This document shows positions 9,505 through 63,808 of a DNA stretch of 64,000 nt, piece by piece (positions within the stretch are counted from its first letter, which is position 1; each line of letters starts with the position of its first letter). The position numbers and the translations under genes are program-made. The notes beneath the pieces were generated by a model that worked only from the letters and a program-made list of their open reading frames with translations, was not told the DNA's origin and searched no databases. Source of the stretch: a virus; IMG/VR virus record IMGVR_UViG_3300007734_000760, positions 95,935 through 159,934 of that record. One strand, given 5' to 3'.

Positions 9505-10842
9505 TTATTTCTTATATATTTTTAATTTTAATGTACCTGTACCTTTAATAACACGATGCCATTTATGTTTAGGTATTGATATTTGTTCATTTAATGATTT
9601 AGGCAATTGATTATCTAATTGTATTTTCCAATCTGTTTTATCTACAGCTTCAATAATGCGTTTTTCATTATCACGATGCCACATTAATTCAATTGGATCT
9701 ATATTTTTATTAAATTCACGAATAATATATTTATCTGTTACTTTAATATCTTTATATGGTTTTTTATTTTCTTCTAAACCTAAATCAGATAAACTTATAT
9801 CTTCATCATCTTCTTTATCAGGTGTTGGTTCCATATAGTTTAAAACCCAACTTTTTTGTGATGATGTTAATTTATTATTTATTAAGTCTTCAATAAATTC
9901 AATAAATTCCCTAGCATTACTTTCTCTATATAAATTAGCTAAAAATAACTCAAATGCTACTTTATTACGAATATTTGCATCATTATACAGTTTTAATAAT
10001 ACTTCTTGAATATGAGTACCAAAACCAAAATCTTCAGGTTCATGTTCTAATTTATCAGCAGTATTAGCTATTGCTTGATTAATTTTTTTACTTTTAGTAA
10101 ATCCTTGTAATGATGTAATTTCATATAAACCTTTAATAATTTCATGAATTAAAAATGGAAATATTATACCTGTTGCTCTAATCTTTAATTTACCTTCTTC
10201 TTCATCAAATTTAGCTTCTGACTCTCCACCTTTGCTTTCTCCCCCACCAGCATTACCACCTGCTAGCATAGCTAAAAACATAGCTAATGCTTCTTCATCA
10301 TAAAATATACCAAATACTTTTTTTAAAGTTTCACCATATTTGTCTACACTATTTTCAATTCCACCTAATGTTTCACTATAACTATCTAATAAATTTTCAG
10401 GAACTTCATCTAAAAAATCCATAAATGGTTTATCTAAAGCACCACGAATTGAAGCGCCTTGAGTAATAGCATTTATAAGTCTTCTTTTAGCTACATCATC
10501 ATTCATTATATCTATAGGTTCTTCTTCTTCTTCTTCAGATTCTTCAGGTTCTTCAGGTTCAGAAGATAACTGGTCTTCTCCTAATGTAGCTTCTATTTCA
10601 ATATCAAATTCATCAATAACAGGATACATTCTTTTAACCATATCTACAGCTAATTTTTCTAATTCAGCTTTATATGGTGCTTCATCTTTAGCTAACTGCT
10701 TAACTAACACAGCAGAACGTTGAAGGATTTGTGTTAAACGTTCATTACCAAGCATACGTTCTCTTGATGAAACGTTTTTACCTTTTAAATTTTGAATAGT
10801 TTCAGGATTTTTAAATATATCCTTATATTGTATTTCGTTCAT
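9505..10842 (-). CDS. Hypothetical protein with fused C-terminal cupin-like module
   Basis: C-terminal ELMWHRD...IPKHKWHRVIKG after an acidic linker ending LGLEE. Confidence 0.65.
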   Translation of the reverse strand: MNEIQYKDIFKNPETIQNLKGKNVSSRERMLGNERLTQILQRSAVLVKQLAKDEAPYKAELEKLAVDMVKRMYPVIDEFDIEIEATLGEDQLSSEPEEPEESEEEEEEPIDIMNDDVAKRRLINAITQGASIRGALDKPFMDFLDEVPENLLDSYSETLGGIENSVDKYGETLKKVFGIFYDEEALAMFLAMLAGGNAGGGESKGGESEAKFDEEEGKLKIRATGIIFPFLIHEIIKGLYEITSLQGFTKSKKINQAIANTADKLEHEPEDFGFGTHIQEVLLKLYNDANIRNKVAFELFLANLYRESNAREFIEFIEDLINNKLTSSQKSWVLNYMEPTPDKEDDEDISLSDLGLEENKKPYKDIKVTDKYIIREFNKNIDPIELMWHRDNEKRIIEAVDKTDWKIQLDNQLPKSLNEQISIPKHKWHRVIKGTGTLKLKIYKK

Positions 10843-11201
10843 TATTTCTTTTTTAATAATTTATATCTTTTTACAATGTCTGCTATTCCTTTAGATACAG
10901 CTTCATTTGCTTTTGCTTTGGGTCTTGTTTTTGGGTTAGTATTTGGATTAGGATGAAGAGGATTTTTTTTCTTTTCTTCTTCTTTTGTTTTAGGTTTAGT
11001 AGGAGCTGGTGCTACTTCAGTAGATTTTGCCTTAGGTCTTGTGTTTGGATTAGTGTTTGGGTTAGGGTGAAGAGGATTTTTTTTCTTTTCTTCTTCTTTT
11101 GTTTTAGGCTTAGTAGGAGCTGGAGCTACTTCAGGAGACTTTTCAGCTAATATAGCGCGTAACTCTTCTTTAATAATCTGTTTTAATTTGTTAATTTTCA
11201 T
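10842..11201 (-). CDS. Pro/Lys-rich leader-tagged protein with an internal tandem duplication
   Basis: Likely start MKINKLKQIIKEELRAILAE; EVAPAPTKPKTKEEEKKKNPLHPNPNTNP present twice. Confidence 0.7.
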   Translation of the reverse strand: MKINKLKQIIKEELRAILAEKSPEVAPAPTKPKTKEEEKKKNPLHPNPNTNPNTRPKAKSTEVAPAPTKPKTKEEEKKKNPLHPNPNTNPKTRPKAKANEAVSKGIADIVKRYKLLKKK

Positions 11202-11250
11202 AATTTGCTGTTTTATTTTTATTTTAGTATGTTTATTATTTAATTGGTCC

Positions 11251-45199: not shown

Positions 45200-45572
45200 T
45201 GGTGGATCCGGAGGGAATCGAACCCTCGTGCAAACGATCAGACTAAGAAAATCATTCACAGGCTTAGTCGTGTTTTTCTAAACAAACAAAATAATCAATT
45301 TTTTGGATCTTTGAAGAAACTGATAAAAACTATGCAACCAGATAAGTCAGGCTTACTTCACCGTTTGTGTCCTTCTGTTCCTAGGATAGACACATCCCGT
45401 TAACTAGGCTGCTATTGCAACTTCGTTGCTTACGAAAGACAATGCGTCTTCGAAAGTGAAATCAGAGATTTCGTTTGCGGTTAAGCTTTTATATAGGTGA
45501 TTAAAGTGCTTCCAATACTAGCACTGCCTGCATTTCAAAGAACTCGATCGCCTGTCAATACCGGTCGGACCC
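45200..45572 (-). ncRNA. ssrA: tmRNA
   Basis: Acceptor GGGTCCG/CGGATCC-ACCA with G3-U pair, T-arm GAGGG-TTCGATT-CCCTC, tag ORF 45478-45404 ANEISDFTFEDALSFVSNEVAIAA*. Confidence 0.92.
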
Positions 45573-45705: not shown

Positions 45706-45761
45706 CAGAGGCTTAGTTACCCTCATCTGACCGTTTAGCAGGTTGAAGCTGCACTTTGGCG

Positions 45762-45833
45762 TACTCTGTACGGGAATCGAACCCGTATTTTGTCCGTGAA
45801 AGGGACACGTCCTAGCCCTTAGACGAACGGAGC
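45762..45833 (-). tRNA. tRNA-Glu (TTC)
   Basis: Cloverleaf; anticodon arm TGTCC-CTTTCAC-GGACA; one acceptor mismatch; CCA not encoded. Confidence 0.9.
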
Positions 45834-56456: not shown

Positions 56457-56639
56457 AACCTTTATTTTTTAATTTATAATTTATTTTTATTAATTTAAAT
56501 ATATAATAATTTATTTTGAGAGCCTAAAATCTTAATTTAAAAACACTTCACATATTATTGTACAAACTTTACTATCTATAATGAATACTTCTATTTTTGT
56601 CTCAATTAAATATTTATCTTCCATAACTTTTATTTTTAG

Positions 56640-56730
56640 TAGTCAGAACAAGATTTGAACTTGTAGCCAGGTACTTTCCCCTGCGTCATCTGTCTATAAG
56701 AATCTGTGTTACCTATTACACCACCTGACT
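56640..56730 (-). ncRNA. Degenerate tRNA-like element (91 nt) with the same acceptor stem as 45585-45638
   Basis: AGTCAGG/TCTGACT-A, D-arm GTGT/ACAC, T-arm ACAAG-TTCAAAT-CTTGT; no canonical anticodon arm. Confidence 0.65.
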
Positions 56731-61676: not shown

Positions 61677-62144
61677 TTACACAATTTTTATAATCTCGTT
61701 CAATCGTCTAATCTCAGCAATTACATCATCACCTAATTCAATTTTAGACATTGCTGTTAAGTCCATTATTTGACAAAATAATAGATTAATTAATTCACTT
61801 TTTGCTTTCTCTCTTGGCGTTGTATCCTCTGGCCAATCTTCAGTATGTTCATATGGTTCATTTTCTAAACCATCATTTAAAGTTACATCCCAATCTTTTA
61901 ATTCAGCTTCTTCAGATGTAATTATCTTAGCGTATTTAGGAAAGTGATCAGGTCCGTTGTTATCATAATCAGTGACTATTTCAAAATCTACTTCTAACCC
62001 TTCATTAGAGTCGTATAGTTTTAAACCATCTATATGGCCATTGTCTATTAATGGATACTGGTTGATTAGTTTAGCATGTGTTCCTTCTTTAACTACTTGC
62101 TTTACTACCCACCCACGATTTGTTTTATTTAATATTCCTTTCAT
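61677..62144 (-). CDS. Hypothetical protein
   Basis: ORF track. Confidence 0.7.
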   Translation of the reverse strand: MKGILNKTNRGWVVKQVVKEGTHAKLINQYPLIDNGHIDGLKLYDSNEGLEVDFEIVTDYDNNGPDHFPKYAKIITSEEAELKDWDVTLNDGLENEPYEHTEDWPEDTTPREKAKSELINLLFCQIMDLTAMSKIELGDDVIAEIRRLNEIIKIV

Positions 62145-62314
62145 ATTAGTCTTGTTTTTATTTCTTTTATTTTTTTCCAGTCTTTTTGTAATTTTTCTTT
62201 AATAGCCAAACGAATAAATTGATTTACATTAACTCCATAATTTTGTAAAATATTTAAACTATTGATTTGCTGTTCAGTAAATCTAATTGTTTTACTTTTA
62301 GTTAGTTGCTTCAT
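62141..62314 (-). CDS. Ribbon-helix-helix-like DNA-binding protein (57 aa)
   Basis: MKQLTKVKTIRFTEQQINSLNILQNYGVNVNQFIRLAIKEKLQKDWKKIKEIKTRLI*; ATGA overlap with next gene; not in ORF track. Confidence 0.7.
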   Translation of the reverse strand: MKQLTKSKTIRFTEQQINSLNILQNYGVNVNQFIRLAIKEKLQKDWKKIKEIKTRLI

Positions 62315-62353
62315 ATTTGAGTTACATTTATTAGTTTTATCAAGTAGTTATCA
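62315..62353 (+). other. Putative attI-like site
   Basis: First cassette boundary G|TTATCAGG at 62347 is not preceded by a hairpin; upstream AGTTACA and AGTTTTA boxes. Confidence 0.45.
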
Positions 62354-62374
62354 GGAATACTACGATTCCGTTTT

Positions 62375-62566
62375 TCAACACGTTTGGTCGCAGTATCCGC
62401 TTAAGCAACATTGCAAAGAACAATATCCTGTTTTATCTTCAAATTTATCATTGCAATCGTCACATAAATCATAACCTTTGCTATTCCAATTGTCTAAATT
62501 ATCTGTAAACTCTTCACATCCTATGCACCATTTATCGCATTTATCTGTTTTTTTTTCGCTTTTCAT
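62375..62566 (-). CDS. Cassette 1 ORF: Cys-rich small protein
   Basis: CxxWCxxC, CDDC and CSLQCCLSGYCDQTC; wholly within cassette 62348-62668. Confidence 0.7.
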   Translation of the reverse strand: MKSEKKTDKCDKWCIGCEEFTDNLDNWNSKGYDLCDDCNDKFEDKTGYCSLQCCLSGYCDQTC

Positions 62567-62598
62567 AACATATTTATTTTTTAATTAATTCGTACTCC

Positions 62599-62674
62599 TG
62601 ATAACAACCGTTACAACCCACCGCCGAATCTACGCAACTACTTAGGCGGCGTGCTGTAGCGGTAAGCGTTATAA
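62599..62674 (+). other. attC-like site 1 (76 nt)
   Basis: TGATAAC-A-ACCGTTACA..CCGCC / GGCGG..TGTAGCGGT-AAGC-GTTATAA. Confidence 0.8.
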
Positions 62675-62680
62675 CCAATG

Positions 62681-62842
62681 CTAAAGAATCGACATTCTAA
62701 ATTCATCATCTTTGCTATCAGTCCCTTCGACATAGATTATTATTTCAGTTCCACTACAAAGCAATTTAAAAGCATAAGTTTGATGCTTCTTTTTCATAGC
62801 CCTTAACCATTTGACCATTTTCCAATATTTCCAGTTAATCAT
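62681..62842 (-). CDS. Cassette 2 ORF (53 aa)
   Basis: MINWKYWKMVKWLRAMKKKHQTYAFKLLCSGTEIIIYVEGTDSKDDEFRMSIL*; not in ORF track. Confidence 0.6.
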   Translation of the reverse strand: MINWKYWKMVKWLRAMKKKHQTYAFKLLCSGTEIIIYVEGTDSKDDEFRMSIL

Positions 62843-62928
62843 GTGTATAGTTTTTAATTGTTTTCTTTATATGTTTTTTTAATCGTGTATAGATTTTGGC
62901 ACTTTTCTTTACATATCATAAGCACTGG

Positions 62929-63005
62929 TTATAACAGCACCTATACGCAATTTTCACACCGCACAAAACCGACACACAACTGCGTATAGCTGCATCACGT
63001 TAGTG
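62929..63005 (+). other. attC-like site 2 (77 nt)
   Basis: TTATAAC-A-GCACCTATACGCAATT / AACTGCGTATAGCTGC-ATCAC-GTTAGTG. Confidence 0.85.
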
Positions 63006-63203
63006 GCAAGGCATCAGACGATAAGTCATAACCGACCAAGTGTAATTACTATTAGGTGCTTTTACAACTGTAAACAACCTTTGAGGCGTTTGTTCTACAA
63101 CTTCAACCTTCGATTTATTTGACAGGTCGTAATCTAGCCAAACAATTTGCCCAGCCACTAACAGCTTTTTTGAGCAAGTGACTTCTGTGTTTAATTTATT
63201 CAT
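63000..63203 (-). CDS. Cassette 3 ORF (67 aa)
   Basis: Starts inside attC3; its stop codon is the TTA of the cassette boundary GTTAG. Confidence 0.7.
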   Translation of the reverse strand: MNKLNTEVTCSKKLLVAGQIVWLDYDLSNKSKVEVVEQTPQRLFTVVKAPNSNYTWSVMTYRLMPCH

Positions 63204-63284
63204 GGTTTTATGTTTTTATTATTAGTTATTAATTTATACATTCGGCAAGCTTTTCCACCTGCTCAAAGACGCAGCACGTTATGT
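63156..63284 (+). other. attC-like site 3 (129 nt)
   Basis: CACTAAC-A-GCTTTTTTGAGCAAGTG / CACCTGCTCAAAGACGC-AGCAC-GTTATGT. Confidence 0.8.
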
Positions 63285-63285
63285 A

Positions 63286-63519
63286 TCATTTTTTCTTGCG
63301 CATCACATCAGTAATAGCATAATTCCATCTTTCCATCAATTCACCATCCGCTTGGTTATGGAAAATTTTAATCATTTCCATACTTGTAAATCTTTCAGGT
63401 GAACCTTTAAGGTAGAAATGAGAATTACCACTTGGTTTATAATCAGGAAATGATTCCGTTTTATAATGTTGTATATCTAATTCTACCAACCAATCTAACA
63501 TCTTTTCTAAATTTTCCAT
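63286..63519 (-). CDS. Cassette 4 ORF (77 aa)
   Basis: MENLEKMLDWL...; fills the cassette from boundary to boundary. Confidence 0.75.
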   Translation of the reverse strand: MENLEKMLDWLVELDIQHYKTESFPDYKPSGNSHFYLKGSPERFTSMEMIKIFHNQADGELMERWNYAITDVMRKKK

Positions 63520-63531
63520 AATAAAAACGAT

Positions 63532-63662
63532 ACATAACAAAGTGTATAAGTAATAACCGAGTTATGTGGTTTATTTAAGTTACTACTTCTATTTAACATT
63601 ATCTTTAATTCAAACTTTTGTACTTCTAAATCGGTTACTACTCATACACTCAACCGTTATCG
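63532..63662 (+). other. attC-like site 4 (131 nt)
   Basis: ACATAAC-AA-AGTGTATAAGTAATAACCGA / TCGGTTACTACTCATACACT-CAACC-GTTATCG. Confidence 0.85.
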
Positions 63663-63672
63663 GCAATATATA

Positions 63673-63808
63673 TCAGTTATCAATACATTTGTCATATAAT
63701 CGTTCTTTAAGCATCCCCTCGATAAGAATAAGATAATTAATTGCATCACCTATTTTCTCCTCAATATATTTATCGGTAAAGTTTACAGTTCCATTATCAA
63801 CTGAATCA
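63673..63808 (-). pseudogene. Headless 3' gene fragment in truncated cassette 5
   Basis: ...DKYIEEKIGDAINYLILIEGMLKERLYDKCIDN* with no plausible start; resembles the C-terminus of DUF1599-like proteins. Confidence 0.5.

Follow-up and report, generated by a model that had tools for sequence, protein, structure and literature searches.

Integrons are the textbook gene-capture system of bacteria, and the locus described here raises the question of what a small ribbon-helix-helix (RHH) gene does in a phage at the place where an integron keeps its integrase gene. The window that we analysed is the final 64 kb of IMG/VR virus record IMGVR_UViG_3300007734_000760 (159,934 bp), whose 137-bp terminal repeat marks it as a complete, circularly assembled phage genome. 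The window has ~27% G+C, and its minus strand carries almost all genes. The array of interest lies amid small early genes, with a DNA ligase, an HNH endonuclease, a DUF932 protein and a RecA-like ATPase as neighbours. Among phage isolates, a DNA search returned nothing closely related to this region; only the phosphoesterase gene was matched, by Flavobacterium phages. An Rfam scan at gathering thresholds returned one tmRNA (45200-45572, minus strand; 92.5 bits; tag peptide ANEISDFTFEDALSFVSNEVAIAA) and two tRNAs, namely a tRNA-Glu near the tmRNA (45761-45833) and a tRNA-Leu with a long arm (56639-56730), and nothing else.

Four cassettes make up the array (62347-63656), each with one small minus-strand ORF and each closed by an imperfect palindrome (hairpins B-E). 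Cassette 1 (62347-62672, plus strand) starts with TTATCAGGAATAC and holds a 63-aa ORF (62375-62566, minus strand) and hairpin B (~62598-62672). Cassette 2 (62673-62997, plus strand) holds a 53-aa ORF (62681-62842, minus strand) and hairpin C, of a GCACCTA...TAGCTGC subtype and 94-97% identical to attC sites of loci L006 and L091. The 67-aa ORF of cassette 3 (62998-63279, plus strand; ORF 63000-63203, minus strand) overlaps at its 5' end the long hairpin D (~63153-63279), and cassette 4 (63280-63656, plus strand) has a 77-84-aa ORF (63286-63519/63540, minus strand) and hairpin E (~63533-63656), the final attC (z -2.6 on the plus strand, -3.2 on the minus strand). The four hairpins have the form of attC sites: imperfect palindromes of ~75-130 nt that run from ...TAAC to GTTA... 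and on the plus strand read ...TAAC, 1 nt, stem, loop, stem, 4-5 nt ending in C, and GTTA.... Beyond the last of them, a conserved right-hand flank (63657-63808, plus strand) begins TTATCGGCAATATATATC, fits the cassette-start consensus TTAnnnGCAA and recurs as a 98% identical copy in L001, there behind a different last attC. This flank probably formed the right half of the insertion site at the outset.

Each cassette start is complementary to its own distal box. The pairs are GTTATCAGGAATAC with the distal R'' box GTACTCCTGATAAC in cassette 1 (13/14), GTTATAACCAATGC with GCACTGGTTATAAC in cassette 2 (13/14), GTTAGTGGC with GCCACTAAC in cassette 3 (10/12) and GTTATGTATC with GATACATAAC in cassette 4 (10/10). 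The starts match their own box and not that of the neighbour, as is also true of L006 and others, and own-end complementarity of this kind marks cassettes of integrons that have recombined at G|TT.

Which strand of these sites corresponds to the attC top strand has to be read from indirect marks, because clear extrahelical bases, which on the R''-L'' arm set attC strand choice (Bouvier 2009), are missing: where the L boxes GCACCTA/TAGCTGC pair, a C.C mismatch lies symmetrically and no base bulges out. The asymmetry of the sites sits instead in the spacer (1 nt versus 4-5 nt). We assign the plus strand as the attC top strand since no other choice yields both G|TT at the hairpin-less end and a complete site closing the array. 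The conserved C that precedes GTT in R' fits this choice too, being equivalent to the conserved bottom-strand G after AAC (Bouvier et al. 2009). The opposite assignment was considered since the ORFs are on the minus strand, and was rejected, as the hairpin-less end would then lack G|TT and the array would start with a complete hairpin. With plus as the top strand, every cassette ORF is on the attC bottom strand and points towards the junction, opposite to what is seen in bacterial integrons.

Some further features of the cassettes deserve mention. The cassette 1 protein has 14 cysteines in 63 residues and a 43%-identical homologue in phage contig L045, and the 3' end of its ORF is encoded inside a GC-rich stem (62354-62398). 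Upstream of the 53-aa ORF, two direct copies of GTGTATAG...TTTTCTTTAYAT lie 42 nt apart (62843-62914) and may be a cassette-borne promoter or operator. A simple hairpin scanner was noisy genome-wide (11 matches versus 6-11 in shuffled sequence) and useful only when combined with the spacer signature and a contrast of orientations; it misses some true sites, and many array-end junctions that it called hairpin-less are false. At the array ends of L048, L064, L120, L077, L125 and others, a short GC-rich palindrome (for example, GCGCAACTGTTGCGC) lies ~10 nt before ...taG|TTA; these ends may be of a further type or carry a minimal attC.

The first boundary of the array, at 62347, has no hairpin upstream. 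An earlier note on this DNA, made from the letters, had pointed this out, and folding of 62300-62415 bears it out, with no significant hairpin on either strand (z -0.8, -1.0). The site at this boundary (62315-62349, plus strand; TTTGAGTTACATTTATTAGTTTTATCAAGTAG|TTA) ends ...CAAGTAG|TTA with its G at 62346, and the crossover would fall at 62346/62347. It contains three direct (T/G)AGTT repeats spaced 13 nt (GAGTT at 62318, TAGTT at 62331 and TAGTT at 62344). A conserved site of 30-40 nt had been expected, and 18 non-redundant RHH contigs agree with this: their mean pairwise identity is 74% in the 34 nt to the RHH side of the crossover, but 28% once 13 nt of the cassette side are passed. By far the most RHH loci lose their similarity exactly at ...TAAC| (gene strand), and the distance from ATG to crossover is constant. 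The first cassette bases of the 18 loci share the consensus TTAnnnGCAA, and an identical 20-nt site precedes seven different first cassettes in 10 contigs. This is what is expected of an attI: a conserved, non-palindromic site at the first array boundary, adjoining a platform gene and with a G|TT crossover.

Hairpins are likewise distributed unevenly around these loci. On the array side of the RHH gene, 69 kb contain 38 attC-like hairpins in top orientation, and 77 kb on the other side contain 4; of 18 RHH loci that extend at least 700 nt upstream, 16 have at least one attC-like hairpin. The possibility that 62315-62346 is merely the remnant of a deleted attC, which would have undone the earlier interpretation, is rejected by the conservation of the 34 nt on the RHH side, the variety of first cassettes and the array-side position of the hairpins; the site is a conserved, hairpin-less one of attI type. 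Its bases nearest the crossover (TTAGCGAGTAG or TTATCAAGTAG) are constant across RHH subgroups that differ in their beta-strand residues, which points to a recombinase, and not the RHH protein, as their reader. Only the closest relatives of the window and four integrase loci (two distinct sequences) show the triple TAGTT layout clearly; elsewhere it is degraded. A sigma-70-type scan of the spacer between the RHH ATG and the crossover, a scan that does not cover Bacteroidota promoters, found no promoter or terminator, so an operator role for the RHH protein is unsupported. A search of viral contigs for an empty platform with TTAKCRAGTAGTTATCGGCAAT gave no match.

The gene that adjoins this site (62141-62314, minus strand) encodes 57 residues and has its ATG at 62314, 32 nt from the crossover G. 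Its RHH character, proposed from the translation, is supported by an AlphaFold model built from 18 homologues (pLDDT 85.9), with an extended N-terminus and helices at residues 14-25 and 30-56; the ribbon-helix-helix superfamily is dimeric, with an N-terminal strand, helix, turn and helix over ~45 residues, and the model agrees with this fold. The best Foldseek matches to the model are RHH proteins, as are nearly all of the top 30 from VIA-align at modest Z scores (4.2-5.7; rmsd 1.7-3.9 Å over 42-56 residues), and structural neighbours include TacA, ParD, CopA, PutA-RHH, omega, Arc and AmrZ. Pfam and NCBIfam scans gave no match, and a profile search of PDB sequences gave nothing significant (CcdA at E 1.4). 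Homologues with 54-88% identity are present in 28 viral loci, and a metagenome profile search returned 1,554 protein clusters, nearly all of 60 aa, unnamed and without a Pfam domain. The median dN/dS of 0.20 (18 loci) indicates purifying selection. As for a type II antitoxin, an adjacent toxin gene is absent and the genes downstream of the RHH gene vary by locus, with no conserved partner. The stop codon of the window's RHH gene overlaps the ATG of the next gene (ATATGA). Comparison with homologues, which are ~60 aa long, shows that this copy is missing the conserved C-terminal ...K(C/Y/L/M)PF tail, and it may not work.

The earlier note had placed this gene on the opposite strand. That holds relative to the attC top strand; relative to the genes it does not, as the RHH gene shares its strand with every cassette ORF and with all neighbouring phage genes. 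Three observations on the gene and its surroundings stand apart. One near-complete phage genome (a 38-kb contig, L016 and L017) has two RHH paralogues with no canonical ...TAAC|TACT junction upstream, one of them apparently fused to the upstream ORF. A 12-nt inverted repeat (11/12) pairs ATTTATTAGTTT in the attI spacer (62326-62337) with RHH codons 33-36, AAACGAATAAAT (62208-62219), which could reflect pairing of the mRNA 5' UTR with the coding sequence or chance in AT-rich DNA. An unnamed RGG-rich family of ~55-80 aa (L144:11222-11398:- and relatives), with RGGxRxGAGRK followed by a strand and a helix, recurs in these phage regions; its 58-aa form was considered as a second platform gene and rejected, being adjacent to no junction.

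The association of the RHH gene with cassette arrays extends well beyond the window. With a strict pattern for one attC subtype (TAACNGCACCTA..TAGCTGCNNNNCGTT), which hairpin C fits except for its 43-nt loop, we found 111 viral stretches and 24 bacterial ones, the latter almost all from Bacteroidota. In all 13 independent viral loci of this subtype with an RHH homologue, the RHH gene lies 5' of the attC top strand and on the opposite strand, so the prediction that RHH homologues abut cassette arrays is borne out in a single geometry. Except for a few (L016, L017, L027), all RHH homologues examined sit at such a junction with a constant spacer. The RHH gene and its site are the only unit conserved across unrelated backbones, namely those of 160 kb, of 35-39 kb and of the 50-kb Incheonvirus. 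The gene is far from universal: among 14 near-complete genomes with this attC subtype, two have an RHH gene, three an integrase and nine neither, and 8-kb bacterial loci with the same subtype show no adjacent RHH gene.

If this is an integron-type platform, where is its recombinase? The absence of a tyrosine recombinase, noted earlier for the 64-kb window, extends to the whole 159,934-bp genome, in which we found no PF00589 domain, no homologue of the phage integrase described below, no serine recombinase and no Y1 transposase. The intI gene adjoining attI that a complete integron would have is thus absent across the whole genome. Four near-complete RHH-type phages (35-39 kb) have no PF00589 domain either.

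The slot is nevertheless one in which related phages keep a recombinase. In eight other loci (L051, L056, L088, L093, L103, L106, L107 and L124), a tyrosine recombinase of 275-293 aa takes the place and strand of the RHH gene, which upholds the comparison with intI-attI geometry. All eight contigs have a complete integron-like unit, made up of the short Xer/IntI-like integrase (in L093, for example, at 10389-11222, minus strand), a hairpin-less site and cassettes that belong to the same attC family. These phage integrases match PF00589 (1e-36) and Phage_int_SAM_4, and score about equally on XerC, XerD and integron-integrase models. Against the integron-integrase model TIGR02249, the L093 protein reaches 170 bits, below the cut-off of 265, in a split match whose better part covers model positions 4-180 of 315, and it is ~40 residues shorter than the model; its best NCBIfam match is an archaeal XerA/integron-integrase model, with a score of 187.6 bits that also falls short of the cut-off (220). 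In six integrase-side sequences that we read, the ATG lies ~47-66 nt from a hairpin-less G|TTA junction of the form ...TAG|TTA (L051/L107, L056/L093, L124), ...ATG|TTA (L088, L103) or ...CCG|TTA (L106). The L051/L107 and L056/L093 sites have three TAGTT repeats 13-16 nt apart, a layout like the 13-nt spacing of the window site, and in integrase-type phage contigs the cassettes are again read towards the integrase.

The two kinds of platform also share cassettes. A 286-nt cassette is 99.65% identical between L051, which is integrase-linked, and L132, which is RHH-linked; the homology is limited exactly by CGTTA, and the flanks are unrelated. This sharing fits service in trans. The earlier proposal of an integrase-less platform so serviced therefore stands in its first part, the recombinase being absent from the genome; the supply in trans is what we infer, and the common cassette is consistent with it. 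Across 50 array-bearing records, 12 have the integrase, eight have the RHH gene and none has both, an overlap of zero that would arise by chance in ~9% of cases. A prophage-like region of a Cyclobacteriaceae chromosome (L170; OZ245881.1, 3438001-3454000) encodes a 273-aa integrase ~4.7 kb from an attC of the same subtype, which places the system inside a Bacteroidota chromosome.

The history of the module can be partly traced. In a relative, L029, the phosphoesterase stop codon overlaps the ATG of a 155-aa gene, with neither RHH gene nor array between them, so the window gained 62148 to ~63814 as one block. The insertion cut off the conserved ...CPF tail of the RHH protein. L001 has both ends of this block, at 95% and 98% identity, but other cassettes, so cassette content varies between fixed ends; the similarity suggests an L001-like donor. 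Elsewhere, L001 (3570-3680, 4480-4580) and L007 (7060-7170), otherwise collinear, carry the array-RHH block on opposite sides of a 940-nt block, and in L001 it is flanked by a short repeat, TACTTGAYTAA, that resembles the attI-like site. Some rearrangements are thus not site-specific, and the whole platform may also move or be lost by recombination between such short repeats.

Taken as a whole, these observations are in our judgement probably best explained by an integron-type platform that works with a borrowed enzyme. The RHH gene, together with the 32 nt that precede its ATG, would be the fixed end, equivalent to attI, of a cassette platform that circulates among Bacteroidota phages. Its cassettes would be discrete units running from G|TTA to G|TTA, each with its own imperfect-palindrome attC, and a short Xer/IntI-like tyrosine recombinase would insert or exchange them at ...AGTAG|TTA. 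Some phages of the pool encode such a recombinase in the very slot of the RHH gene, which the present phage, like other RHH-type phages, does not do. Having no recombinase of its own, its array would change only when the enzyme is supplied in trans, whether by the host, by a resident prophage or by a second phage infecting the same cell. The RHH protein, presumably a dimer, would bind the ATG-proximal part of the site and set how far transcription reads through from the cassettes into the conserved downstream genes, perhaps also limiting access to attI; regulatory or insulating DNA binding is its most likely role there. The module from 62148 to ~63814 arrived en bloc between two overlapping genes, at the price of the RHH protein's C-terminal tail.

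How closely the RHH protein is tied to recombination is the main point on which other explanations differ. It could be a dedicated accessory factor that binds the attI-like site and recruits or activates a Xer-type recombinase of the host chromosome, so that no phage integrase is needed. RHH accessory factors occur at relaxase nick sites (TraY, TrwA), and an accessory role here would have a parallel in the activating factors that Xer-exploiting elements carry. By their model scores the phage integrases are Xer-like, the invariant PF tip at the C-terminus of the RHH family could be a docking peptide, the gene and its site alone persist on all three kinds of backbone, and RHH gene and integrase fill one slot without co-occurring in any of the 50 records. 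Yet that exclusion could be chance at the numbers involved, nine of the 14 near-complete array-bearing genomes manage with neither protein, and the bases nearest the crossover do not co-vary with the strand through which the RHH protein would read DNA. That the RHH protein is a purpose-built attI-binding factor, replacing the integrase gene and licensing a host or helper Xer-type recombinase through its PF tail, therefore seems to us unlikely. At the other extreme, it might be an ordinary phage transcription regulator, beside which arrays come to lie since the preferred target of the integrase happens to be upstream, gene and site then travelling together by linkage. RHH proteins are mostly repressors (Arc, Mnt, CopG, omega), and this one is co-transcribed with the cassettes and the downstream genes and is under purifying selection; integrase-type sites do without it, and the copy in the window was a passenger of the en bloc insertion that tolerated the loss of its tail. 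Set against this are the position of nearly all homologues examined (L016, L017 and L027 apart) at the junction with a constant spacer, the differences between backbones in the downstream genes, and a spacer without a promoter-like site, and we regard the idea as rather unlikely, if worth keeping in view. The same evidence bears on the regulatory or insulating role that we prefer: for a link to the platform speak the only unit common to unrelated backbones, the fixed length of the spacer and the occupation of the integrase's slot, and against a necessary role speak the arrays without an RHH gene, which are the majority, the integrase-type sites that lack it and the C-terminally shortened copy of the window.

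A more radical alternative would dispense with a site-specific platform. The hairpins would then be mere intergenic terminators or regulatory stem-loops, and homologous recombination between them would generate the variability, as in the shuffling of T4-type promoter stem-loops. The elements do sit between small co-oriented genes of an early region, and the TACTTGAYTAA flanks in L001 and the shift of its block relative to L007 across 940 nt have this character. But cassette starts complementary to their own distal box and not the neighbour's, and a cassette common to L051 and L132 whose homology stops exactly at CGTTA, are hard to obtain in this way. The hairpin sequences differ and so offer little homology, no terminator-like sites were found, and relatives have a tyrosine recombinase at the array end. 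Furthermore, Qi et al. 2023 (PMC9892861) showed that IntI1 recombined an attC of Polaribacter phage P12002L, whose sister P12002S carries an RHH homologue. We consider this alternative very improbable.

A platform working on a borrowed enzyme would have several implications. Phage-borne attC clusters have been reported only recently, as orphan arrays. Our results indicate that in Bacteroidota phages the docking end of such arrays is defined and conserved and exists in two or more forms, one bearing a short Xer-like integrase and another a small RHH protein, and that both draw on one cassette pool. The platform can be tested through its site, its candidate enzyme and the protein that may act as an accessory. 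It bears on how virulent phages shuffle small early genes, many of them likely counter-defence genes, and on whether cassette capture can run on a borrowed recombinase. It also draws attention to an RHH family of more than 1,500 metagenome protein clusters that are currently without annotation. Should the RHH protein prove to be an attI factor after all, RHH-type phages would run an integron without owning its enzyme, in a two-part division of labour with cassettes read towards attI.

Comparison with known systems places this platform between several of them. In fold and size the RHH protein is like Arc, Mnt, CopG, omega, ParD and TacA, and RHH regulators and antitoxins bind DNA as dimers, often at tandem direct repeats. 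It differs from them in having no Pfam or NCBIfam match and no partner toxin gene, in its fixed position at a recombination junction and in a basic conserved tail ending in PF. Xer-exploiting integrative elements (IMEX), such as the TLC phage XafT, have no recombinase of their own and use a Xer-family enzyme together with a small activating protein. The likeness lies in a mobile element that lacks a recombinase and encodes a small DNA-binding protein; the differences are that no dif-like site was identified here and that what is mobile is an array of cassettes and not an entire genome that integrates.

The closest published relatives are the integrase-less attC clusters (CALINs) that Qi et al. 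2023 describe in virulent phages, including P12002L, one of whose attC sites was the one recombined by IntI1 (PMC9892861). Arrays of attC-bounded cassettes with G|TT boundaries in a phage without an integrase are common to both. The paper leaves the RHH gene unmentioned, the word 'ribbon' occurring 0 times in it, and its available passages describe no conserved hairpin-less attI-like end for the virulent-phage arrays, no short integrase in the same slot and no consistent cassette polarity (PMC9892861). In P12002S, gp34 is an RHH homologue with the same junction 31 nt upstream, and it adjoins the methyltransferase cassettes that make up the published CALIN of P12002L. Our literature search found no paper on a link of RHH genes to such arrays, on the short integrase or on the inverted polarity of the cassettes. 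Phage CALINs are thus already known, and these three features are apparently unreported.

Bacterial integrons (class 1, the Vibrio superintegron) share with the phage platform a fixed hairpin-less site beside a divergently placed platform gene, cassettes running from G|TT to G|TT, R''/R' boxes that end in AAC and start with GTT, own-end complementarity beyond 7 nt and the C before the GTT of R' (Bouvier 2009); the direct repeats of the attI-like site are reminiscent of DR1/DR2 of attI1. The phage sites differ in their extended boxes (TTGCnnnTAAC / GTTAnnnGCAA) and in an asymmetric 1 x 4-5 nt internal loop and a C.C mismatch in place of clear extrahelical bases. The platform gene here encodes an RHH protein of 57-60 aa and not an integrase, and where a phage integrase is present, it has 275-293 aa and lacks the IntI-specific insertion. 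Finally, the phage cassette ORFs, placed on the attC bottom strand, point towards attI, whereas those of bacterial integrons point away from it.
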